This document shows, one piece after another, positions 2,986 through 41,062 of a DNA stretch of 41,062 nt (its first letter is position 1; every line of letters begins with the position of its first letter). Made by a program: the position numbers and the translations under genes. This stretch comes from a virus. Taxonomy: Duplodnaviria > Heunggongvirae > Uroviricota > Caudoviricetes. The stretch covers positions 1-41,062 of the IMG/VR virus record IMGVR_UViG_2939177367_000003. One strand, given 5' to 3'. The notes under the pieces were generated by a model. The model did not search any database. It had not been told where the DNA came from and was given only the letters and a program-made list of their open reading frames with translations.

Positions 2986-4020
2986 ATGAGAAATGAAAAA
3001 ATTGATTTTTTAAGATTTCTTGGACTATCACTTATTGTGCTGGCTCATGTTAATCCGCCGTTAATAATTTCACAACTTAGAAATTTTGATGTACCATTAA
3101 TGTTTTTAGTTATGGGAATGTCTTTTTTCATAACTGAGTCAAGGCATACATCAACCTTTAACTACATAGCATCTAGGTTTAAACGGCTTGTAATTCCAAC
3201 ATGGTTTTTTTTCTCGTGTTTTTACATTGTTAGCGAGCTAATCTGGATGTATCAGGGACATTCAGAGTTTAAATACAGTGCAGGAACAATTGCTGCAACT
3301 TTTGCTTTATCTACCGGCATAGGTTATGTATGGGTAATAAGAATTTTTTTTAGTGTATCTATTTTAGCCATACTAACACCCAAATCAATATTAAACGCTT
3401 CCATTTATAAAATAACGTTCCTATCATTCGGCTTTATTATATTAAATACGTATTTCCTATCTTCTTTTTACGAATCTTTAGATGTAAATATAAGAGCTCT
3501 TGAAATAGGAACATTTATATCAAGCACCGCGGTTTATTTATGCGTATTTCTTATTGGATATAAGATATTACAGGAAGACAGAAATTCTATAATATTTATC
3601 TTATTTATAAGCGGTGTTATTTTTACAGTTGTGATGTCGTATTTGATGACACGAGAGGGTCACTTCATTCCTACTCAAGAAGATAAATATCCACCTGGAA
3701 TTTACTATATTTCATTTGCAATATTTATGTCTTTAGCATTTTTTGTGACTTCAGAAAAACTCATAAAAGCATTAAGCTACTCAAAATTATGGGGAATAGT
3801 GATGTTCATTTCATCAAATTCAATCTGGATTTATTTATGGCATATTGCTTTCATCGTTAACATAATAAATTTAAATATTAATTTCATGTTTAAATATATA
3901 CTTGTTTACTCATTTTCTATTGCTATTGTATTTATACAGGTTAAGCTAATTAAAAGCATAACCTCCACAATCAAAGATGATAGAAAGTCAAAGATTTTGA
4001 ATCAAATTTTTACAGGTTAA
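2986..4020 (+). CDS. Integral-membrane acyltransferase (acyltransferase-3 family), putative O-antigen/LPS acetyltransferase
   Basis: N-terminal KIDFLRFLGLSLIVLAHV motif (IDxLRxxxxxxxxxH), about 10 predicted transmembrane segments, very AT-rich gene with AT-rich upstream region; position next to int/gtrA is typical for serotype-conversion genes. Confidence 0.5.
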   Translation: MRNEKIDFLRFLGLSLIVLAHVNPPLIISQLRNFDVPLMFLVMGMSFFITESRHTSTFNYIASRFKRLVIPTWFFFSCFYIVSELIWMYQGHSEFKYSAGTIAATFALSTGIGYVWVIRIFFSVSILAILTPKSILNASIYKITFLSFGFIILNTYFLSSFYESLDVNIRALEIGTFISSTAVYLCVFLIGYKILQEDRNSIIFILFISGVIFTVVMSYLMTREGHFIPTQEDKYPPGIYYISFAIFMSLAFFVTSEKLIKALSYSKLWGIVMFISSNSIWIYLWHIAFIVNIINLNINFMFKYILVYSFSIAIVFIQVKLIKSITSTIKDDRKSKILNQIFTG

Positions 4021-26843: not shown

Positions 26844-27150
26844 CTTCTACTCCGGCTTTTTTAGCAGCGAAGCGTTTGATAAGCGAACCAATCGAGTCAG
26901 TACCGATGTAGCCGATGAACACGCTCATTATATAAGCGAGATTGCTACTTAGTCCGGCGAAGTCGAGAAGGTCACGAATGAACCAGGCGATAATGGCGCA
27001 CATCGTTGCGTCGATTACTGTTTTTGTAAACGCACCGCCATTATATCTGCCGCGAAGGTACGCCATTGCAAACGCAAGGATTGCCCCGATGCCTTGTTCC
27101 TTTGCCGCGAGAATGGCGGCTAACAGGTCATGTTTTTCTGGCATCTTCAT
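26827..27150 (-). CDS. S: Holin, lambda S-type (dual start MKMPEK)
   Basis: Translation [62 protein letters not shown]... matches lambda S. Confidence 0.9.
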
Positions 27151-27439
27151 GTCTTACCCCCAATAAGGGGATTTGCTCTATTTAATTAGGAATAAGGTCG
27201 ATTACTGATAGAACAAATCCAGGCTACTGTGTTTAGTAATCAGATTTGTTCGTGACCGATATGCACGGGCAAAACGGCAGGAGGTTGTTAGCGCAGCCTC
27301 TTGCCACCCGCCTTCACGAAGCCAGCCATTGCGCTGGTTTTCTTTTATGCAAAGCACACCGCACCGTAGCCACAGCGGATAAGGTGATTATTTTTGTCTG
27401 TCTGGTATTTGGTTTGATGTGCTTTCAGAAAGGCCGTGC

Positions 27440-27477
27440 TTAAAACGCAAAAAGCCCCGAGCTATTAACTCAGGGCT
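27440..27477 (-). terminator. tR'-like terminator of the short pR' leader transcript
   Basis: Hairpin AGCCCCGAG / CTCAGGGCT followed on the minus strand by UUUUUGCGUUUU. Confidence 0.5.
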
Positions 27478-27512
27478 TTATTTAACGAGTGCATTTATCC
27501 ATCGTTAGGTCA

Positions 27513-27541
27513 AATTTACCCAACTTTATTCAAAAAGTCAA
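27513..27541 (-). promoter_or_regulatory. Late promoter pR' (-35 TTGACT, 17-bp spacer, -10 TAAATT)
   Basis: Minus-strand sequence ATATTGACTTTTTGAATAAAGTTGGGTAAATTTGAC matches the lambda pR' region as recalled; lies between Q and S. Confidence 0.6.
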
Positions 27542-27583
27542 TATTATGCCGTTAATATGTTGCCATCCGTGGCAATCATGCTG

Positions 27584-28207
27584 CTAACGTGTGACCGCGT
27601 TCAAAATGTTGTCTGCAATTGACTCTTCCTTGTGGCATTGCACCACCAGAGCGTCATACAGCGGCTTAACAGTGCGTGACCAGGTGGGTTGAGTAAGGTT
27701 TGGGATTAGCATCGTTACAGCGCGATATGCGGCGCTTGCTGGCATTCTTGAATAGCCGACACCTTTGCATCTTCCGCACTCTTTCTCGACAACTCTCCCC
27801 CACTGCTCTGTTTTGGCAATATCAACCGCCCGACCTGTACCGTGGCAATCCCTGCATCTTGCGCCCGGCGTCGCGGCACTACGGCAATAATCCGCATAAG
27901 CGAATGTTGCGAGCACTTGCAGTACCTTTGCCTTAGTATTTCCTTCAAGCTTTGCCACACCACGGTATTTCCCCGATACCTTGTGTGCAAATTGCATCAG
28001 ATAGTTGATAGCCTTTTGTTTGTCGTTCTGGCTGAGTTCATGCTTACCGCAGAATGCAGCCATCCCGAATCCGGCCTGTGATTGTGCCATCCCCATAGCA
28101 GCCATCACATCAGTACCGGAAAGAGAGTCAGAAGCCGTAGCCCGTGGTGAGTCGCTCATCATCGGGCTTTTTGGCGAATGAAATTTAGCTACGCTTTCGA
28201 GTCTCAT
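27584..28207 (-). CDS. Q: Late-gene antiterminator Q (lambda Q-type)
   Basis: Translation MRLESVAKFHSPKSPMMSDSPRATASDSLSGTDVMAAMGMAQSQAGFGMAAFCGKHE... matches lambda Q, including zinc-binding Cys cluster. Confidence 0.9.
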   Translation of the reverse strand: MRLESVAKFHSPKSPMMSDSPRATASDSLSGTDVMAAMGMAQSQAGFGMAAFCGKHELSQNDKQKAINYLMQFAHKVSGKYRGVAKLEGNTKAKVLQVLATFAYADYCRSAATPGARCRDCHGTGRAVDIAKTEQWGRVVEKECGRCKGVGYSRMPASAAYRAVTMLIPNLTQPTWSRTVKPLYDALVVQCHKEESIADNILNAVTR

Positions 28208-28392
28208 GGCCTTCCCCTTTTGCCCTGTTTGACCATCAGGACGCCGTTAACTATTACGTGACGCTCGCCTTTGCTGTCTCGGTTGTACTTGAGCACTGTT
28301 CCTCTTGCGCAGGAAAGCATCCTCGCCACTTCGGTCTGATTGCCTCGTGTCTGGATAAGAAGCTCTGGTATCGTTTGAATTGTGGCGTTCAT
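28204..28392 (-). CDS. ninH: NinH-like small DNA-binding protein
   Basis: Motif GNQTEVARMLSCARGTVLKYNRD resembles lambda NinH (GNQTEVARRLKCSRGTVRKY). Confidence 0.55.
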   Translation of the reverse strand: MNATIQTIPELLIQTRGNQTEVARMLSCARGTVLKYNRDSKGERHVIVNGVLMVKQGKRGRP

Positions 28393-28751
28393 GCGTTCTC
28401 CAGTTCGGTGATTTTTATTCCAAGCCTTCCGCCTGGTACTTTCACACCACGAATTACGCGAATGTCATCGAATTGCTCGTCGTCTTCCGCAAATCCGGCG
28501 TGGATAAGGGAGTCGAGTAAACCCTTCAGGATGTTATCGAGGTCGCGGCGGCGGGAGTCTGGAACGTCTGCGATGACTTTGATGCGGAGTCTTGATTTGG
28601 TGAAAATGTCTAACTTGAGTTGGCGGATGATTTGCTGAACGTCTTTTCGGTATTTCTGGCCTTTATCGCTGATGTAGTATTGGCTTCCCCGTCTTCGCCA
28701 GTAGGTGTTCACAGACGGCGGGTACGGAAGCACAAACTGATATTCGTTCAT
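28389..28751 (-). CDS. rusA: Holliday-junction resolvase RusA
   Basis: PDSRRRDLDNILKGLLDSL...DDIRVIRGVK motifs match RusA. Confidence 0.8.
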   Translation of the reverse strand: MNEYQFVLPYPPSVNTYWRRRGSQYYISDKGQKYRKDVQQIIRQLKLDIFTKSRLRIKVIADVPDSRRRDLDNILKGLLDSLIHAGFAEDDEQFDDIRVIRGVKVPGGRLGIKITELENA

Positions 28752-29038
28752 GGTTTAATCTTCCCCTCCTTCAGCAGTATCGCCTGCGTCCTGATCACGC
28801 CTTCGAGGTGGTAAAGTCTGGCGTCTTTGTTGTCGAGGTTATGGGTGCGTCGGTCGATCTCCGCGTGGCAGTCGCTACAAGCCCATGCGCCGATCAGGTC
28901 GTCAGGCTTCATCCCCGTTCCGCAAATTCCAGCCATCCGGTAATGTGCCAGAACTGTAGTTTCAGGATTGCCATTGCATACGCCGTAAATACGTACCTGG
29001 CATTCTCTGCCGCGCGCTTCTTTGCGTAGGTTAGCCAT
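28748..29038 (-). CDS. DUF1364 / YbcO-like nin-region protein
   Basis: 96 aa Cys/His-rich protein in the expected nin position. Confidence 0.5.
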   Translation of the reverse strand: MANLRKEARGRECQVRIYGVCNGNPETTVLAHYRMAGICGTGMKPDDLIGAWACSDCHAEIDRRTHNLDNKDARLYHLEGVIRTQAILLKEGKIKP

Positions 29039-29760
29039 TAAGCAGCCTCCCCTGTTACTTTCAGCATTCCGTTATCGAGCAGCTTTCTGGTCAGCCACTG
29101 TTGACCACGCCCGGTGATTTTTGTGGTGAACGATATCTGTATTCCGTGATTTGTATTGACCGCTGTTTCTTTCACTGTGAAATAGCCGCGATCCATATAT
29201 TCCTGCATTGGCACATTGCGCCGGGAACCTGAAGCAATAAGGATTTTGTGATCGCGCATCCACGCAAACAGTTTGTTTGGACCAATACCAACAACCTTTG
29301 CAAAGTTTCCAATCAAAATTCCGCTGGCCTCGCCAACGCGATCGGCAAACTCAACTTTAGGTGCGGCAATTGCGAGCTGGTTTTCCAGTTGCATTTTCTG
29401 CTCAGCAAGATCAGCAGCAAGGCGCAACGCTTCCGGTAACGTTTTTGGGATATTAACCGCAGTTTCTTCAAGCTCTCGCCAACGGTCAACAAGACGAGCG
29501 GTGAACTCTGGCGACAACTGGGCAACAACGACAATACTGTCTCGCTTACCTTGTTCGCCCTCGAAGACGTAATGCTCGTACTGAACACTGAACCCTAAGT
29601 TATTGATTCTTTCGGAAACCTCAATTTGAGGAAGCCGGATAACACCATTTTTAGCCAGCGTTTCGATGGTACGTTTCACATTGTCATGACGCTTACCCAC
29701 CAACTCAGCGATTTCAATGCTTGTCATTTTGATGGCATTGCCATTTATTAACTCATTCAT
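29038..29760 (-). CDS. Antirepressor (N-terminal Rha-like plus C-terminal KilAC/ANT domain)
   Basis: N-terminal MTSIEIAELVGKRHDNVKRTIETL; C-terminal FADRVGEASGILIGNFAKVVGIGPNKLFAWMRDHKIL typical of ANT domain. Confidence 0.65.
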   Translation of the reverse strand: MNELINGNAIKMTSIEIAELVGKRHDNVKRTIETLAKNGVIRLPQIEVSERINNLGFSVQYEHYVFEGEQGKRDSIVVVAQLSPEFTARLVDRWRELEETAVNIPKTLPEALRLAADLAEQKMQLENQLAIAAPKVEFADRVGEASGILIGNFAKVVGIGPNKLFAWMRDHKILIASGSRRNVPMQEYMDRGYFTVKETAVNTNHGIQISFTTKITGRGQQWLTRKLLDNGMLKVTGEAA

Positions 29761-29965
29761 CGTCTTCTTCCTCGTACATTGAGCTATTCGGATCGCTCAT
29801 CAGTTCTGCGCAGCAGTGCTCACACACGTGAACTTCCAGCACATGCAGCTTCTGACCGCAGTTAGCGCACGTTAAAGCCCGATCGACGCTTTCTTGTTCG
29901 TAACTTCGATTTGGGTCAATCACCTTGTATTCCTCGCACGATTTCTTAGCCACCGGATATCCCAC
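29753..29965 (-). CDS. Small Cys-rich (zinc-ribbon-like) protein, possibly NinF-like
   Basis: CANCGQ...CEHCC motif; acidic C-terminus. Confidence 0.3.
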
Positions 29966-30102
29966 AGGTGAGCCGTGTAGTTGAAGGTTTTTACGTCAGA
30001 TTCTTTTGGGATTGACTTGCGTTTATTTCTGGAGCGTTTCGTTGGAAGGTATTTGCAGTTTTCACAGATTATGTCGGTGATACTTCGTCGCTGTCTCGCC
30101 AC
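29920..30102 (-). CDS. ninE: NinE-like protein (probable GTG start)
   Basis: [51 protein letters not shown] matches lambda NinE as recalled; GGAGG RBS before GTG. Confidence 0.55.
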
Positions 30103-30242
30103 ACGTCCTCCTTTTCCTGCGGTAGTGGCAACACCCATGTTGGTGTTCTTTCACACCGGAGACACCATCGATTCCAGTAAGGTTGATTTGGTCGGAAGCG
30201 GTTATCTTCTTTGCATTCACCGCACCGATAACATCGCATCAT
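30069..30242 (-). CDS. NinD-like zinc-ribbon protein
   Basis: [36 protein letters not shown]; start taken at the internal Met pair. Confidence 0.4.
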
Positions 30243-30679
30243 GCTGCCCGATCTCCCCATCGCGCTTTCCATTCGAGAGCCAGTCGCGCTTCGTCTGACC
30301 ACTTAACGCCACGCTCTGTACCGAATGCCTGTATAAGCTCTAATAGCTCCGCAAATTCGCCTACACGCATCCTGCTGGTTGACTGGCCTATTACCACAAA
30401 GCCATTCCCGGCAAGGTTAGGAACAACATCCTGCTGCTTTAATGCTGCGGTAAACACACACTTCCAGCTTTCTGCATCCAGCCAGCGACCATGCCATTCA
30501 ACCTGACGAGAGACGTCACCTAAGCAGGCCCATAGCTTCCTGTTTTGGTCTAAGCTGCGGTTGCGTTCCTGAATGGTTACTACGATTGGTTTGGTTGGGT
30601 CTGGAAGAATTTGCTGTACTGCGTGAATAGCGTTTTGCTGATGTGCTGGAGATCGAATTTCAAAGGTTAGTTTTTTCAT
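30239..30679 (-). CDS. ninB: NinB (Orf-family recombination mediator)
   Basis: [59 protein letters not shown]... matches lambda NinB. Confidence 0.85.
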
Positions 30680-30688
30680 GACTTCCCT

Positions 30689-30722
30689 CTCCCCCAAATA
30701 AAAAGGCCTGCGATTACCAGCA
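30689..30722 (-). terminator. tR2-like rho-independent terminator between replication and nin genes
   Basis: Minus-strand hairpin CAGGCCTGC-TGGTAATC-GCAGGCCT followed by UUUUUAUUU. Confidence 0.6.
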
Positions 30723-30756
30723 GGCCTGTTATTAGCTCAGTGATGTAGATGGTCAT

Positions 30757-32637
30757 TTAATACTCCGTCACGTTTTCCTGTCGCCACGCCTCGTCATATT
30801 CCGATTTCGGCATATTGGCGATGTAGCTATATGGCGATCCTGATTCAAGTTGCAGGAACTGGTGCGATTGCTCGTCAAGGAACAACGGGACACCACCCTC
30901 CCAACCTTCGCCGTTACGTTGTTTTTCAAGCATCAAAACAGATGCCGGAGATGCCAGTAGCTGTTCGTCCTTCTCTGACATCTTTTCACCACTCTGAACT
31001 CTCTGTAACGCTCTCTCGCGAGCCTTGTTACGCCAGATGATGAAAAGGTTGTCTGTCAGGTCTGTTATCGCTCCAGAGCCTTTTACGTCCATTTTCCCGG
31101 TTGGTTTTTCTTCGCTGTCTCCTTTTCTGGAGTGAGTAACGAGAATGACGTGGGAGTTTGTTTTGTTTTTGAAGTCACAAATCGAGTCAACAAATGCTTT
31201 CTGCCCGTTATAGTCATCGTCACCTATGCCGCATTTCATCAGGCTGTCGATGATGAATAACTGGATGCCGTATCGGCGGCGAGCGTAGTCGAATATTTCG
31301 ATCAGCCTGTCGGCTTTCGCCGTTCCGGTCAGGCCAAACACCCAAAGTCTTTCGTCATAAAATTTAAATGCAGAGTCAATTTCCAGCACTGGCGGCATCT
31401 TGCAGCACGTCGCCTGACGGGTAAGGCGCTTAAGGAGAATACCAGGCTTCAGCTCAAGTGACGCGATGCACGTCTTCACACCCTGACGCATTGCCTCAAG
31501 AGCCATATGCCCGACAACCTCCGTTTTTCCGTGACCGTTCACACCATTGACCAGCGTCAACTCGGCCTCACGGAACTGGAATTTATCTGCCAGAGATTCC
31601 CACGGTGGATTAAACAGATACTGCTGCTTGCCGTAGAAAGCGTTGATAGTGTCCTGGTAAAACTCTCGCGCGCTGTAGAGTTCTTCAGGATCGAAGTAGG
31701 ATGCCGTGCCGATGTACTGCCAGATTTCATCCTCGGTAACACCGTTCATCAGGCATTCGTTGATGTCTTTGTACGGCAGAGTAACAAGACGGCAACGATG
31801 TTCACCGAGTCGGCTTGCGATTTCCCTTGCGGCTTCACGACCAACATCATCAACGTCCATCGAGATGAATATTTCCTCAAACCTGTCGAGGTTGTGATAC
31901 TCAAACTCAATCCACTGCTGTTTAGCGCCTTTCCCGCCACCAAACGGCACGGATAACGCCGAGATGCCATATTGCGCATAGCTCATACAATCAATTTCGC
32001 CTTCGCAAAGTACAACCGCCCTCACGCCAGCGTCCAGAGCCTGCCATCCGAACAGACAAGGTTCGCAATCACCTTCTGCCATAATGACTTTCTTCCCGTC
32101 CGGGCGCTCAGTGCTGATTCGCTTGACCTGCAACAACTCACCATCGCGTTTGTACGGAATCACCAGAGCATCCAGTTCCAGCTCTCCATTCCACACCTTG
32201 CCGCTGACAACCTCGTAGCGCTTTACGATTTCTGGCGATATGCCACGCGATTGCAGGTACTCAAGATGGGATTCTGTTCTGGTAACGTAGCGGGCGATTT
32301 TCTTGCGATCAGGTCTGGAGAATTTCTTCTCACGTTTGGCATCGAAATGGTGATCGTCATCCTTGATACCGAGAAAGGCTTTCGCTTCCTGCATAGCCTG
32401 ATGCAGGTTAATTCCACGACATGCCATCCACAAATCAAGCATGTCACCGCCGTCTCCCTCAGCGAAATCAGCCCATTTTTTCTTGCCGCTAAGGTTGACC
32501 TTAAGGCTGTTTCCCTTGTCACCGTTGACGTTACCGGCAACCCACTCATGCCCCTCTTTCTTGCCGTTTGGCAACAGGTGCGGAGCCACCCTGTCAACCT
32601 GCGCCCAAAGCAGGTCGCTAAGTTCACTTGGTGTCAT
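30757..32637 (-). CDS. Bifunctional DNA primase / DnaB-like helicase
   Basis: 626 aa; N-terminal primase-like region and C-terminal P-loop RecA/DnaB-like segment (NGVNGHGKTEVVGHMALEAMRQG). Confidence 0.7.
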   Translation of the reverse strand: MTPSELSDLLWAQVDRVAPHLLPNGKKEGHEWVAGNVNGDKGNSLKVNLSGKKKWADFAEGDGGDMLDLWMACRGINLHQAMQEAKAFLGIKDDDHHFDAKREKKFSRPDRKKIARYVTRTESHLEYLQSRGISPEIVKRYEVVSGKVWNGELELDALVIPYKRDGELLQVKRISTERPDGKKVIMAEGDCEPCLFGWQALDAGVRAVVLCEGEIDCMSYAQYGISALSVPFGGGKGAKQQWIEFEYHNLDRFEEIFISMDVDDVGREAAREIASRLGEHRCRLVTLPYKDINECLMNGVTEDEIWQYIGTASYFDPEELYSAREFYQDTINAFYGKQQYLFNPPWESLADKFQFREAELTLVNGVNGHGKTEVVGHMALEAMRQGVKTCIASLELKPGILLKRLTRQATCCKMPPVLEIDSAFKFYDERLWVFGLTGTAKADRLIEIFDYARRRYGIQLFIIDSLMKCGIGDDDYNGQKAFVDSICDFKNKTNSHVILVTHSRKGDSEEKPTGKMDVKGSGAITDLTDNLFIIWRNKARERALQRVQSGEKMSEKDEQLLASPASVLMLEKQRNGEGWEGGVPLFLDEQSHQFLQLESGSPYSYIANMPKSEYDEAWRQENVTEY

Positions 32638-32744
32638 GATTCCCTCAGATTGAGATTTTTAAACCAGAAATCGACAAACGAAATACTTAACCAGCCGTGG
32701 TTATAACCAGCGACCAGTAGCGATTTGATTTTTGATTTCATGGT

Positions 32745-33605
32745 TCACCTGTCGAAAAACACGTAGCCAGTTTTCGATACGGTGATTGCGGATGATGGTT
32801 TGGATTGTGGTTGAATAGTTTCTGGCTTCTCGTCGTTCCAGCGTTGACCGTTCAGGTAGCTCGATGGTAACAACCTGTCGAATCCGAACTGCTTACCATT
32901 CCTGCATGCGATGTCTTCTGCCAGCATCGTGGCAAACTCGCTTGCCGTACCCCTGGTAGTTTTACGCCATTCCCTGAACTGTGTTCTGAATGCTGAAGCT
33001 GCGTTTTTCTTCCCGGCTTTCCGCATGCCTGCACACCAGAATATTTCCTCGAATGCCTTGTCGGTTTCTTCGTGACGGTCAGATGATTTTTCACACTCCG
33101 TCCGAACACTTTCGGACATAGTGTTTTTATTATTTCTTTTTTCTTTTGTAATAGTTTCTTTTGTGTGTCCCTGTTTTGGTGACAGCGCTGTCACCGTTTT
33201 GGTGACACTTTTTGTCACCAATGTAGTGACATTATCACCAGAGTAGTGACACCCTTCGATTTGCCATTCCTCGATGTTCTTGTTAGGCCCGATTTGCTGG
33301 CCTTCGCGAAGGATAACCTTCATCGCGATAAGCTCATTCTTGGCCTTGTTTACCTTCTGTCTTGGCAGCCTGGTAATTTGAGCTAACTGACTATCAGAGA
33401 TGCGATCCATCTTTTTACCGTAGCCGTATGTTTTACGGCATATGGCGTGGGCAACCTTGCTCTGATTTTTCGTTAAATCTGCGCCGATAAGCTCTTCATA
33501 CAGGGCATTTGCAAGACGGGTATAACCATCTTCAACTTCTGCCACACGACGCTCCACAGGCCGTTGTGAAGGCCTTAAATGTGTTACGGTTGCAAGATTA
33601 CTCAT
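32745..33605 (-). CDS. Replication initiator protein, lambda O-like N-terminal domain
   Basis: [49 protein letters not shown] matches the replication protein O N-terminal family; iterons inside the gene. Confidence 0.7.
33116..33255. repeat. Candidate origin of replication: AT-rich tract plus iterons inside the O-like gene
   Basis: AT-rich 33116-33170; perfect 18-bp palindrome GGTGACAGCGCTGTCACC (33178-33195); four or more further GTGACA/TGTCAC repeats at ~10-13 bp spacing. Confidence 0.5.
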
Positions 33606-33744
33606 GACCTTTCTCCTTCTGCATCAGCTTCACCTTTTCCAACTCAGCCCGGAATCGACCAGGCTGCTTGAAGCTGGACAGGAAGCGATCACGTAGTATG
33701 TGTTTGTGAATTTTGTCCTGGTAAGGACTGAGTTGTTTTGTCAT
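33598..33744 (-). CDS. Small ORF (48 aa) between cII and the O-like gene
   Basis: ATG preceded by AGGAG RBS; stop overlaps the O-like start; not in the supplied ORF track (below length cutoff). Confidence 0.3.
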
Positions 33745-33776
33745 AATTACTCCTGTGGATTGATCCAGTAATTCCC

Positions 33777-34073
33777 TCAGAATTGCATATCAATTTGCTT
33801 AAAATCCTCGGTGGCGGCCGGGGATTTTTTCTTTGTGATTTCATCAAGCGCATACTTAAAAGCCCTGCTAATCGGACTGATGTCTGATGCCATTCCGAAA
33901 GCACACAAGACCGAAGCAATAAATCTCCAGTCCGTTCTGCTTATCTTCGATTCATGACAGCCAATCATCTTTGCCAGACCGCGCTGGGTAAGCGTTGACA
34001 GGTTGATGAGTAAATCAGTTTCAGCGCGATCAATTTCTCGCTGTGTTGGCTTGCTGTAGCTTGCTTGTGCCAT
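33777..34073 (-). CDS. cII: CII-like transcriptional activator
   Basis: C-terminus [19 protein letters not shown] parallels lambda CII TNKKRPAATERSEQIQMEF; central SKISRTDW vs SQISRWKRDW. Confidence 0.7.
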
Positions 34074-34141
34074 TTGTTAATTTTCCTATATTGATATTGA
34101 GTTATAGCGGCACACCCAATGGATTTGCCGCTGATGTTTGC

Positions 34142-34182
34142 TCACCCGGTTAGAGGTGAAAGGCCAGAACTGTTAAAGAGCA
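34142..34182 (-). promoter_or_regulatory. nutR-like site (boxA plus boxB hairpin) downstream of cro
   Basis: Minus-strand boxA TGCTCTTTAACAG (34170-34182), then hairpin UCACC-UCUAACCG-GGUGA (34142-34159). Confidence 0.5.
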
Positions 34183-34188
34183 ATTTGC

Positions 34189-34374
34189 TTATGCCGCTTG
34201 GCGGTAAGCACTTTCTTGATACTTCAGGGCGCCAGCTGTAACGATTTCCAATCGATAGGCGTCTTTCTCTGGGATAACTTCTTTCCACTGAGAGACTGCT
34301 GCATCGCTAATGCCTAGTGCTTTAGCAACAGCACGCTGGGTTCCGAAGTGGTCAATAACATCTTTTTTGTACAT
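34189..34374 (-). CDS. cro: Cro repressor (HTH)
   Basis: 61 aa; HTH QRAVAKALGISDAAVSQW; divergent from the repressor gene. Confidence 0.75.
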   Translation of the reverse strand: MYKKDVIDHFGTQRAVAKALGISDAAVSQWKEVIPEKDAYRLEIVTAGALKYQESAYRQAA

Positions 34375-34388
34375 AGACTCGCTCCGAA

Positions 34389-34454
34389 ATTAAAGAACAC
34401 TTAAATTATCCACCAAAGGAATCTTAAGTCAAGTTTATTTAAGATGTCTTAACT
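34389..34454. promoter_or_regulatory. OR operator region with PR promoter (P22-type 18-bp operators)
   Basis: Sites ATTAAAGAACACTTAAAT (34389-34406) and ATTTAAGATGTCTTAACT (34437-34454) fit ANTNAAG-N4-CTTNANT; PR on minus strand: -35 TTGACT (34427-34432), 16-bp spacer, -10 GATAAT (34405-34410). Confidence 0.6.
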
Positions 34455-35105
34455 ATGAATACACAACTGATGGGTGAGCGTATTCGCGCTCGCAGAAAAG
34501 AACTCAAGATTAGGCAGGCTGCCCTTGGCAAGATGGTTGGCGTGTCTAATGTTGCTATTTCCCAATGGGAGCGATCTGAAACTGAGCCCAATGGCGAAAA
34601 CCTATTGGCCTTAGCCAAGGCTTTGCAGTGCTCCCCTGATTACCTGTTGAAAGGAGAGGATAGTCTTTCAAACATTGCCTATCACAGCAGGCATGATCCA
34701 AGAGGTTCGTATCCTCTAATTAGTTGGGTAAGCGCAGGATGTTGGATGGAAGCTGTAGAGCCATATCATAGGCGTGCAATAGATAACTGGTACGACACAA
34801 CGGTAGATTGTTCTGAAGACTCTTTTTGGCTCGACGTTAAAGGCGATTCAATGACTGCCCCGGCAGGACTGAGTATTCCTGAGGGGATGATTATTCTCGT
34901 CGACCCAGAAGTCGAACCACGTAATGGAAAGCTGGTAGTCGCCAAACTTGAAGGGGAAAACGAGGCGACATTCAAAAAGTTAGTTATTGATGCCGGTAGA
35001 AAATTCCTGAAACCACTCAATCCACAATACCCAATGATTGAAATCAATGGGAACTGTAAAATCATTGGCGTTGTCGTTGATGCCAAGCTAGCAAACCTTC
35101 CTTAA
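34455..35105 (+). CDS. c2: Prophage repressor, P22 C2-type (HTH plus LexA-like S24 autopeptidase domain)
   Basis: Translation MNTQLMGERIRARRKELKIRQAALGKMVGVSNVAISQWERSETEPNGENLLALAKALQCSPDYLL... matches P22 C2 as recalled. Confidence 0.9.
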   Translation: MNTQLMGERIRARRKELKIRQAALGKMVGVSNVAISQWERSETEPNGENLLALAKALQCSPDYLLKGEDSLSNIAYHSRHDPRGSYPLISWVSAGCWMEAVEPYHRRAIDNWYDTTVDCSEDSFWLDVKGDSMTAPAGLSIPEGMIILVDPEVEPRNGKLVVAKLEGENEATFKKLVIDAGRKFLKPLNPQYPMIEINGNCKIIGVVVDAKLANLP

Positions 35106-35129
35106 GGGGCTTTCGCCCCTTTTTTATTT
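35104..35129 (+). terminator. Rho-independent terminator after repressor gene
   Basis: AGGGGC-TTTC-GCCCCT hairpin followed by TTTTTTATTT, starting at the stop codon. Confidence 0.65.
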
Positions 35130-35168
35130 CCCGTTAAAAATCAAAGACAAACTAAATTCACGCCCATA

Positions 35169-35224
35169 AAATTAAGTTTTCTTCAAAAATGCACTTGACC
35201 AATAAATTAAGAAGTCTTAAATTT
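35169..35224 (+). promoter_or_regulatory. OL operators with PL promoter
   Basis: Operator-consensus sites AATTAAGTTTTCTTCAAA (35169-35186) and AATTAAGAAGTCTTAAAT (35205-35222); -35 TTGACC (35195-35200), 17-bp spacer, -10 TAAATT. Confidence 0.5.
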
Positions 35225-35268
35225 AAGCCATCAGCAGGACGCTGGAAGCCAAACGGAACAGATTGGCA

Positions 35269-35309
35269 GGCTCTTTAACATCGACGGACTCTCAACCTAA
35301 CCGTTGAGA
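35269..35309 (+). promoter_or_regulatory. nutL-like site (boxA plus boxB hairpin)
   Basis: boxA GCTCTTTAACA (35270-35280) close to rrn/lambda boxA; 9 nt later hairpin UCUCAAC-CUAACC-GUUGAGA (35290-35309); loop motif CUAACC shared with nutR. Confidence 0.5.
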
Positions 35310-35419
35310 CCAGAACTTGAGTGGTTTTGGGGATGGCGCGAATTGCAGCTGCAAGACAGCGATCGAGAGGATAAGCACCTTGACGCGTCATGCGCCAAAG
35401 CCACTTAAAGGAGACCATC

Positions 35420-35725
35420 ATGGTAACCATTGTCTGGAAAGAATCCAAAGGTACGGCAAAAAGCCGCTACAAAGCTCGCAGAGCAGAACTTATTGCCGAG
35501 CGACGCAGTAATGAAGCACTGGCGCGAAAAATTGCGCTAAAGCTCTCTGGTTGCGTCAAAGCAGACAAAGCAGCATCACTAGGAATCCTTTGCTGCAAGA
35601 AGAAAGAAGAAGTCGTTCGAAAAAATAGAAGTATTTATTACAAAGATTCAACCCCATTAGGAAACAAAATACATGCAGTCCAAAAAATAAAATTGTACAG
35701 TAAACTACCGTACGGTGCTTATTGA
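35420..35725 (+). CDS. N-like transcription antiterminator (arginine-rich motif)
   Basis: N-terminal ARM KSRYKARRAELIAERR resembles lambda N (RRRERRAEKQAQW) and P22 gp24 (KTRRHERRRKLAIER); AGGAG RBS; first gene after PL/nutL. Confidence 0.6.
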   Translation: MVTIVWKESKGTAKSRYKARRAELIAERRSNEALARKIALKLSGCVKADKAASLGILCCKKKEEVVRKNRSIYYKDSTPLGNKIHAVQKIKLYSKLPYGAY

Positions 35726-39742: not shown

Positions 39743-39943
39743 ATGCAACACGAACTACAACCTGATTCACTGGTTGATTTGAAATTCATCATGGCCGATA
39801 CTGGCTTCGGTAAAACCTTCATTTATGACCGGATTAAGTCCGGCGACCTGCCTAAAGCCAAAGTTATCCACGGGCGAGCAAGATGGTTATATCGTGACCA
39901 TTGTGAATTCAAAAATAAGCTCTTAAGCCGCGCCAATGGGTAA
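39743..39943 (+). CDS. torI: TorI-type excisionase / recombination directionality factor
   Basis: 66-aa translation MQHELQPDSLVDLKFIMADTGFGKTFIYDRIKSGDLPKAKVIHGRARWLYRDHCEFKNKLLSRANG matches E. coli TorI as recalled. Confidence 0.85.
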   Translation: MQHELQPDSLVDLKFIMADTGFGKTFIYDRIKSGDLPKAKVIHGRARWLYRDHCEFKNKLLSRANG

Positions 39944-40126: not shown

Positions 40127-41062
40127 TTATGAAGTGGTTTTTACCTGTTCTCTTAGCCAGGTAATAAACGCTTCAATTTTTGGCCACTGCCTGCCCGGTA
40201 ATGTGGTGATGTAATAATGCTGATGGCATTTCACCGTCATATCGCCAAACGGCGCGACGAGCTCACCACTGGCAAGCCTTTTTTGTACCAGGCGTTTTCT
40301 TCCCATCGCCACCCCAATATGATTCATCGCGGCAATAACAGCTAAATCAGAACGATCAAAGCCAATTCCAGAAGATGTCGGCAAATTAACCGCATAATGT
40401 TGCGCCCAACTATGCCATTCATCCGTACCGGAGTCGTTGCTCCATGCCTGTCTGTCATGGAGCAACGTACAGTGACACAGGTTAATTACCGTGTTGGTTA
40501 AAGCATGTCTTTGAGCGTATTCCGGGCTACATACTGGCAGGATTTCTTCATCCATCAGAAAGTGATGAGTGAGTTGCGCTGACGGCGCATCATCAAAGTA
40601 GATCGCCAAATCGATTCCGGCACGTTGCAGATTGACGTTGTCATTACCAGTGAGCACGGTGAGCGAAATAGACGGATACCGGCGTGTAAAGTCACCTAAT
40701 GCGGGCACCAACCAGCATTGGGCGATAGAGGGCCGGGAATACAGAGTTAACGTTCCCGATAACTCCTGATTTTTGATATCAAGAATTTCCTGGTTCAGGG
40801 TATCCAGCGACGATTTTAGCGCCCAATAAACACGTTTCCCCTCGTGCGTTAATTCCACTTTGCGATGGGAACGAACAAACAACTGAATGCCCAATTCTTC
40901 TTCCAGCTGATTGATACGGTGACTTACCGCACTGGGGCTCAGCGACAATTCCTCTGCCGCCAGGGCGAAGGACTGATGCCTGGCAGCCACTTCAAAAGTA
41001 TGCATTTTTGATAATTGCCAGCCGTTAAGCAGCCGATTTCTTATTTCACGAAGGGGTTCCAT
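40127..41062 (-). CDS. dsdC: LysR-family transcriptional regulator DsdC (D-serine deaminase activator); chromosomal flank
   Basis: Full 311-aa translation MEPLREIRNRLLNGWQLSKMHTFEVAARHQSFALAAEELSLSPSAVSHRINQLEEELGIQLF... recognised as DsdC; start codon is the last three bases of the window. Confidence 0.85.
   Translation of the reverse strand: MEPLREIRNRLLNGWQLSKMHTFEVAARHQSFALAAEELSLSPSAVSHRINQLEEELGIQLFVRSHRKVELTHEGKRVYWALKSSLDTLNQEILDIKNQELSGTLTLYSRPSIAQCWLVPALGDFTRRYPSISLTVLTGNDNVNLQRAGIDLAIYFDDAPSAQLTHHFLMDEEILPVCSPEYAQRHALTNTVINLCHCTLLHDRQAWSNDSGTDEWHSWAQHYAVNLPTSSGIGFDRSDLAVIAAMNHIGVAMGRKRLVQKRLASGELVAPFGDMTVKCHQHYYITTLPGRQWPKIEAFITWLREQVKTTS

Follow-up and report, generated by a model that had tools for sequence, protein, structure and literature searches.

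The open reading frame at positions 29038 to 29760 of this viral DNA raises the question of what an apparent antirepressor gene is doing in the nin region, with no repressor genes beside it. The original prediction was that a Rha/KilAC-type antirepressor gene had been inserted between nin genes, that it would be expressed only after induction, and that its product could either inactivate the repressor of a co-resident prophage or act as a transcriptional regulator. We examined this locus in the context of the window, by which we mean the whole 41,062-nucleotide stretch that was analyzed.

Identity and place of the roi gene

The window is a complete prophage, and its late genes are 97-98% identical to those of the myoviruses SfII, SfI and vB_EcoM-689R6, the element being an SfII/SfI-like myovirus prophage of E. 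coli or Shigella. An integrase gene occupies positions 1-1158, an IS transposase gene positions 1594-2574 and a low-GC acyltransferase gene positions 2986-4020; the right end of the window holds a host gene of the LysR family. The cI repressor gene (34455-35105, plus strand) encodes HTH_3 and Peptidase_S24 domains in Pfam, and a P22-type cro gene (34189-34374) lies on the minus strand. On the minus strand, the early right operon comprises, in order, PR, cro, cII, an O-like gene, a fused primase-helicase gene, a tR2-like terminator, the nin genes with the open reading frame under study, and Q.

This open reading frame (29038-29760, minus strand) has an ATG start and encodes 240 amino acids. Over those 240 residues its product is 99% identical to the Roi protein of phage HK620 and 88% identical to that of HK022. 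Sequence identity and synteny both place it in the Roi family; it is roi, an already-known gene of lambdoid phages, in its canonical place in the nin region.

The domain search confirmed the Rha/KilAC-type architecture that had been proposed. The C-terminal KilAC/ANT domain (PF03374; residues 126-228, positions 29077-29385, minus strand) was matched at E 7.7e-33, with 113.5 bits against a gathering threshold of 25.3. The N-terminal domain is a Rha-type winged-helix DNA-binding domain (PF09669, Phage_pRha; residues 12-99, positions 29464-29727, minus strand), matched at E 8.6e-9 with a modest margin, 36.3 bits against a cut-off of 29.9, and some roi allele types carry no Rha domain in precomputed Pfam assignments. 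Among close homologues, variation is found in the N-terminal half, and the KilAC half hardly changes. In PHROGs, Roi falls in phrog_63, "anti-repressor Ant" (E 1.1e-98), with a weak match to phrog_518, "Rha-like transcriptional regulator" (E 3.4e-4). AF2 modeling on the basis of 16 close homologues gave low confidence (mean pLDDT 42.8, pTM 0.29); the model places a helix-helix-beta-hairpin at residues 14-65. A PDB sequence search with Roi returned no relative at E <= 1.

Neither P22_AR_N nor P22_AR_C gave a Pfam match in Roi at E <= 0.01. There was likewise no Pfam match to AntA/AntB (PF08346), the N-terminus being of the Rha type. The term "antirepressor" on Roi is thus a label derived from the KilAC domain alone. 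The picture of an antirepressor that has lost its partners is not supported, because Roi is not an antirepressor of the P22 Ant family and has no need of mnt/arc partners.

The neighbors proposed for the gene were borne out by Pfam, which agrees with a position between NinE/NinF-like genes and ybcO/rusA in the PR operon. Upstream on the minus strand lie ninB (30239-30697; PF05772, E 2.3e-54), ninE (29920-30138, with a probable start at 30102; PF05322, E 9.5e-42) and, directly adjoining roi, ninF (29753-29923; PF05810), whose start we set from the HK620 annotation and the sequence. Directly downstream on the same strand is ybcO/hkbD (28748-29038; PF07102, E 1.4e-43), which encodes a DUF1364 putative nuclease, followed by the Holliday-junction resolvase gene rusA (28389-28751; PF05866), ninH (28204-28392; PF06322) and the Q antiterminator gene (27584-28207; PF03589, E 1.3e-57), the final gene of the delayed-early transcript that contains roi. 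The genes follow one another without gaps: the ninF stop codon and the roi start share bases in ATGAATGA (29753-29760), as do the stop of roi and the start of ybcO in TAATG (29036-29040). These overlaps on both sides leave no intergenic space for a repressor gene or an operator. Antisense and alternative-frame open reading frames over 28808-30298, which would include an unrecognized repressor gene directly upstream, gave no Pfam match, and the statement that no mnt/arc-type repressors accompany the gene is therefore correct.

What did not stand was the view of the gene as a noteworthy insertion, since roi is found in the same place in HK022, HK620, mEpX and many Stx phages. A megablast of positions 28700-30200 against phage genomes matched 429 records; the best full-length matches, annotated as roi or "DNA-binding protein Roi", were in HK620, HK633, HK140, HK75, HK022, HK97, mEpX1/2, CUS-3 and many Stx phages. 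In the annotated regions, the order ninB-ninE-ninF-roi-hkbD(ybcO)-rus-ninH-Q is common to the window, HK022 and HK620, and the gene order of HK97 agrees with that of the window from ninE to rusA. The HK022, HK97 and HK620 Roi proteins have the same length and the same two domains as the window protein, and their genes likewise lie between ninF and hkbD/ybcO, ahead of rusA-ninH-Q; those phages are siphoviruses or podoviruses, whereas the window prophage is an SfII-like myovirus. We also examined 80 related viral contigs, all of which carry the same roi allele at 98-100% identity and are thus informative on context and not on allele diversity: ninF was directly upstream of roi with the same overlap in 80 of 80, and ybcO directly downstream in 73. 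About 20% of complete E. coli genomes, or roughly 1 in 5, contain roi. More than 7,000 database proteins match Roi, and a single cluster at 99% identity holds 2355 sequences. We conclude that roi is a widespread accessory nin-region gene of HK022/HK97/HK620-type lambdoid phages and not an unusual insertion.

Transcription of roi

We searched for an internal promoter or operator upstream of position 29760 and found no promoter above chance and no LexA box. There was no sigma-70-like promoter directly upstream of roi, the nearest 9/12 match lying inside ninE (30097-30068), and promoter-like sites across 27000-35500 numbered 9 against 9.4 expected, which is the chance level. No LexA box (CTGT-N8-ACAG, with at most one mismatch) was found upstream of roi; the nearest LexA-like match lies downstream, in rusA (28699-28714), and the total count was at chance level. 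The gene therefore lacks the LexA box of the LexA-controlled antirepressors of the Gifsy and 186 Tum types.

Between cI and cro we identified a PR-like promoter, TTGACT-16-GATAAT (34405-34432, minus strand), which at 10/12 is the best match in the region, and it is most likely from here that roi is transcribed. Between the replication genes and the nin region lies a tR2-like intrinsic terminator (30704-30727, minus strand) with an 8-bp stem containing 6 GC pairs and a T-run, at a position equal to that of the annotated tR2 of HK620. A PR'-like promoter follows Q (27541-27513), with a terminator beyond it (27479-27451). With the PR-like promoter, the tR2-like terminator and Q so arranged, the proposal that roi would be expressed only after PR derepression is sound; Roi is most likely a delayed-early product, dependent on derepression of PR and on antitermination.

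The combination of HTH_3 and Peptidase_S24 domains in the cI of this prophage is that of RecA-stimulated self-cleaving repressors such as lambda cI. The presence of such a self-cleaving repressor suggests that the prophage needs no antirepressor for SOS induction of its own.

A dyad and an IHF consensus in the variable part of roi

The roi gene is a mosaic. A hypervariable block at about nucleotides 63-195 of the gene (positions 29566-29698, minus strand) encodes residues ~22-65, which include the putative recognition helix and wing. DNA identity between phages falls to 50-70% in this block, compared with 90-100% in much of the remaining gene. The first 62 nucleotides are near-identical between phages, as is the sequence beyond about nucleotide 420 (beyond about nucleotide 195 in the HK022 allele), and two Stx alleles are 56-83% identical over about nucleotides 270-420. 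Among 120 close Roi homologues we distinguished at least 8 allele types of the block. The window gene carries a different allele from HK022 in the N-terminal block (residues ~22-65), where the two are 53-70% identical in DNA. The comparisons that follow used the DNA of all 8 allele types.

A motif scan placed an IHF consensus, AATCAATAACTTA (WATCAANNNNTTR), within this block at gene nucleotides 153-165 (positions 29596-29608, minus strand). There are five matches to WATCAANNNNTTR in the window, four of them in its AT-rich left end, and the roi site is the only one in positions 7,000-41,062. It is present at the same gene position in 6 of the 8 allele types, including that of HK022, and is conserved between flanks of only 50-70% identity.

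Ten bases upstream of the IHF consensus lies a 13-bp dyad, CCTCAAATTGAGG (positions 29619-29631, gene nucleotides 130-142), which we regard as a candidate Roi operator. Of the 8 allele types, 7 keep its symmetry, and the sequence takes three forms: CCTCAAATTGAGG in the window allele, CCTGCATTGCAGG in allele E and CCCCCAATGGGGG in allele G. HK022, with CTGCATTGCAG where the window gene has CCTCAAATTGAGG, retains 5 of the 6 pairs of the CCTGCATTGCAGG version, and alleles C and F retain 5 of 6 of the CCCCCAATGGGGG version. The residues encoded at the dyad differ between alleles (PQIE, PALQ and PPMG), and one covarying pair links the synonymous third base of the proline codon with the second base of a codon three positions downstream. 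The involvement of a synonymous base points to selection at the level of the nucleic acid. Across alleles, 87.5% of dyad cells were paired, compared with 27-44% when the partners were slid, and 0 of 500 shuffles matched this value, for sequences that are related and a structure that was derived from the same data. Three of the six pairs show compensatory changes. When 3500 dyads were scanned in roi, the one at 29619-29631 (in two registers) was the sole dyad that remained symmetric while varying in sequence.

The type of dyad tracks the type of putative recognition helix across the A/A', C/G and B/E alleles. In the recombinant alleles A' and G the breakpoint is just downstream of the dyad. Dyad and helix types lie about 60 nucleotides apart in the gene, and linkage alone could cause their association. 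Both motifs, dyad and IHF consensus, are missing from the 933W-like allele D, so a scheme built on them is not universal. As to further copies of the dyad in the prophage, we found weak matches within roi (29349-29361) and between the O-like gene and the helicase gene (32643-32655). The 11-mer core occurred 4 times against 1.16 expected, and the 13-mer with 3 mismatches occurred at chance level. We set these copies aside as Roi targets elsewhere in the prophage, the matches being weak and the counts unconvincing.

The same symmetry might instead serve in the mRNA, as a hairpin affecting translation or stability, or it might be a by-product of codon usage and recombination history; we consider either unlikely. 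The minimum-energy fold of most alleles does contain a small hairpin with a 5-bp stem, flanking pairs extend it in the window, C and G alleles, and in allele G it reaches an 11-bp stem with z = -3.6. Moreover, 3 of 66 allele-A genes carry an A-to-G change at gene nucleotide 135, which breaks the innermost pair of the DNA dyad and falls at a loop position in the RNA. Against this, the window, HK022, C and E alleles fold no more stably than shuffled sequences do (z from +0.4 to -1.2), and a perfect 6+1+6 dyad is typical of the site of a dimeric helix-turn-helix protein. The IHF consensus 10 bp from the dyad in 6 of the 8 alleles also agrees with the linkage of Roi and IHF sites that is reported for HK022. 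On these comparisons of alleles, the dyad at 29619-29631 is better read as a putative Roi operator, which would form a nucleoprotein complex with the adjacent IHF site. The pairing of dyad and IHF site is a modest addition, and may restate footprinting from 1996.

Possible roles of Roi

In 1996, Clerget and Boccard reportedly found that the binding site of HK022 Roi lies within roi itself and is closely linked to a site for IHF. IHF is said to stabilize this binding, and mutants able to grow without IHF reportedly map in roi. HK022 Roi is cited as a DNA-binding protein in PMC3430580 and PMC4587872, which mention no antirepressor activity for it, and it is also cited as blocking lytic growth in IHF mutants. 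Our literature searches turned up no more recent functional studies of Roi. A parallel is provided by Rha of phi80 and of P22 (orf201), which has the Phage_pRha N-terminal domain in common with the window Roi and is detrimental to lytic growth without IHF (PMC4936722). The overall similarity is weak, and P22 rha lies in the late operon (PMC4936722), whereas the window roi is in the nin region.

We consider it fairly probable that Roi, a delayed-early protein dependent on PR and N, is a regulator that binds DNA and acts on its own gene together with IHF. Once the S24-type cI has been inactivated, the PR transcript would be made, and N-type antitermination would carry it through the tR2-like terminator so that roi is read. 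Having no promoter of its own, roi would be expressed only after induction or infection. Roi would then bind DNA as a dimer, using the Rha-type winged helix at its N-terminus. Homology with HK022 Roi points to a target within roi beside an IHF site; here the candidate is the dyad at 29619-29631, where an adjacent IHF-induced bend would help binding and IHF would stabilize the complex. Since transcription from PR has to pass the predicted site before it reaches Q, the complex would probably limit read-through across roi. Such a limit would make the dose of Roi autoregulated and tune the timing of late genes. The C-terminal KilAC domain may be an effector or oligomerization part that is harmful in excess, and phage growth would fail without IHF if control were lost and excess Roi did harm through KilAC. 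It is by analogy with other proteins that we ascribe to Roi a roadblock or autoregulatory effect and a toxic KilAC domain.

Of the two activities first proposed, then, transcriptional regulation is closer to what is known of HK022 Roi, and the antirepressor half is a label taken from a domain. That Roi might nevertheless be a true antirepressor, binding and inactivating a cI-type repressor, strikes us as very doubtful. Being made only once PR has fired, such a protein would either remove leftover cI and so lock in the lytic decision of its own phage, or act in trans to induce co-resident prophages. Such a role could be argued from the KilAC domain, which Roi has in common with the P1 antirepressors Ant1/Ant2 and with P1 KilA (PMC9043618; bioRxiv 10.1101/2024.01.05.574328). 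The N-termini of those proteins are AntA/AntB or KilA-N, while that of Roi is Rha, so that Roi has the KilAC half of the P1 Ant1/Ant2 type and not its AntA/AntB half. The immI region of P1 is under antisense-RNA control. A precedent for a nin-region antirepressor with a lock-in role comes from Stx phages, whose roi is immediately preceded in its operon by a gene for a P22-Ant-like protein, without arc or mnt; in Phi24B this nin-region gene is ant (PMC3430580). An ant knock-out of Phi24B was studied with a pR'-lux induction reporter, and the authors proposed that ant helps the prophage to be induced efficiently (PMC3064807). The Ant proteins of P22 and Phi24B have the label "antirepressor" in common with Roi but belong to a different family (ORF6N/P22_AR_N with P22_AR_C). 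P22 ant also has its own promoter and two dedicated repressors (immI mnt/arc), which the window roi does not, and every element of the P22-type ant, arc and mnt module, namely the domains, the promoter and the small repressors, is absent from the roi locus.

The domain content of Roi, with neither P22_AR_N/C nor AntA/B, thus argues against antirepressor activity, as does the absence of any mention of it in PMC3430580 and PMC4587872, which cite HK022 Roi as binding DNA. The variable part of Roi is the putative DNA-recognition region and not KilAC, which fits specificity for DNA better than an adaptation to different repressors. The S24 self-cleavage domain in the cI of the prophage weighs in the same direction. 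We also found a Roi homologue encoded in 1631 phage records, including ICP1, Salmonella phages such as skrot, and KIL4. Such phages are virulent and carry no repressor that would have to be counteracted, and the presence of Rha/KilAC homologues in them counts against an antirepressor function. Cross-induction of other prophages by Roi is unsupported.

The KilAC half might be directed at the host, with Roi mainly damping the SOS response through RecA, in the manner of Listeria AriS, or blocking cell division, in the manner of the KilAC-only toxin CreP, and with the N-terminal domain only regulating phage genes or the dose of Roi. We think this unlikely as the main job of the protein; it is compatible with the regulatory model favored above. 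An architectural parallel is AriS of the Listeria phage phi10403S, which combines a variable N-terminal regulatory domain with a conserved C-terminal KilAC domain, as Roi does. Its KilAC domain alone inhibits SOS, and the AriS-like architectures, which join KilAC to an N-terminal AntA/B, Bro-N or pRha domain, include the pRha-KilAC arrangement of Roi (PMC9043618). AriS differs in having an AntA/AntB N-terminus, compared with pRha in the window Roi, and in coming from a Firmicute phage. CreP, which consists of KilAC alone, is bacteriostatic, blocks cell division and makes cells filamentous; distant phage KilAC antirepressors also inhibit cell division, and phi11 gp07 and P1 KilA are named as KilAC fusions (bioRxiv 10.1101/2024.01.05.574328). 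A near-invariant KilAC half is what would be expected with a conserved host target. However, the functional data all come from distant homologues in Firmicutes or Acinetobacter, the sequence match of Roi to AriS and CreP is limited to the Pfam domain, and in the literature that we searched no such activity of Roi was found.

The regulatory model could be taken one step further. At least five types of hypervariable block with an embedded dyad might act as self-targeting cassettes that form a second, immunity-like specificity system, in which PR-to-Q read-through is throttled with IHF in an allele-matched manner. We hold this to be improbable. If it were true, any co-resident or superinfecting phage with the same allele would have its roi gene bound by Roi, and the prophages of polylysogens such as STEC would show cross-talk or interference according to allele.

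The roi gene, its place in the nin region and the absence of dedicated repressors were already documented with the genomes of HK022, HK97 and HK620. For annotation, the lesson is that "antirepressor" on a Rha/KilAC protein is not evidence for prophage cross-induction. For the phages themselves, the dyad beside a conserved IHF site offers a testable handle on how Roi affects when late genes, and with them Shiga toxin, are expressed.

Secondary matches to the roi dyad and the replication module

We searched for the 11-mer core of the 13-bp roi dyad, the proposed Roi operator at 29619-29631, allowing one mismatch. Four matches were seen versus 1.16 expected, and 2 of 100 shuffles reached that number. 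Besides the dyad itself, one weak match to the core, CCTAAAGTTGAGT, lay within roi at 29349-29361, in its conserved half, and another, CCTCAGATTGAGA, at 32643-32655, in the gap between the O-like initiator and helicase genes; both may be secondary sites for Roi or chance occurrences.

The second of these matches falls in the replication module, where the O-like initiator gene (32745-33605) is followed by a gene (30757-32637) encoding a 626-aa protein in which Toprim primase-like and DnaB-like helicase domains are fused. The lambdoid phages HK022 and HK620 differ here in having a P/DnaB-type loader or helicase in place of the Toprim-DnaB-like fusion.

Gene neighborhood and length of roi in relatives

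The genes flanking roi differed between relatives. In a Stx-type E. coli prophage (contig L088, 1746-3223), a gene with ORF6N and P22_AR_C domains, similar to P22 Ant, took the place of ninF directly upstream of roi. In a second contig (L091, 1300-3819), the upstream neighbor was a P63C-domain gene, while NinG replaced YbcO/RusA downstream. A few database entries matching Roi (P0001, P0002, P0006, and P0007) were longer, at 294-304 aa, and some of them included NinB and ANT domains. Their extra length probably stems from wrongly called starts or from frameshifts that join them to upstream nin genes, and not from genuine protein fusion.

Ends of the prophage

The left end of the prophage carries the integrase (1-1158) and an Acyl_transf_3 gene (2986-4020), and an insertion sequence with a DDE transposase (1594-2574, opposite strand) sits between the two. 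The GC content of the Acyl_transf_3 region was just 29.5%, and the gene has the appearance of an O-antigen acetylation moron such as serotype-converting Shigella phages carry. The early-left region has at its far end a 66-aa ORF (39743-39943) with a weak HTH_17 match. This ORF appears to be akin to TorI, which serves as excisionase in the KplE1/CPS-53 prophage of K-12, and it adjoins a LysR-family host gene (40127-41062) that presumably resembles dsdC. If both likenesses are right, the prophage would be integrated at the argW-dsdC site.

Copies of roi in E. coli genomes

Among complete E. coli genomes, matches to roi fell on plasmids rather than chromosomes in 7 of 1425 cases, and these plasmid-borne copies are possibly carried by phage-plasmids. 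Some of the complete genomes harbored up to four copies of roi, and allele-specific cross-talk among co-resident prophages is therefore physically possible in such multi-roi E. coli.
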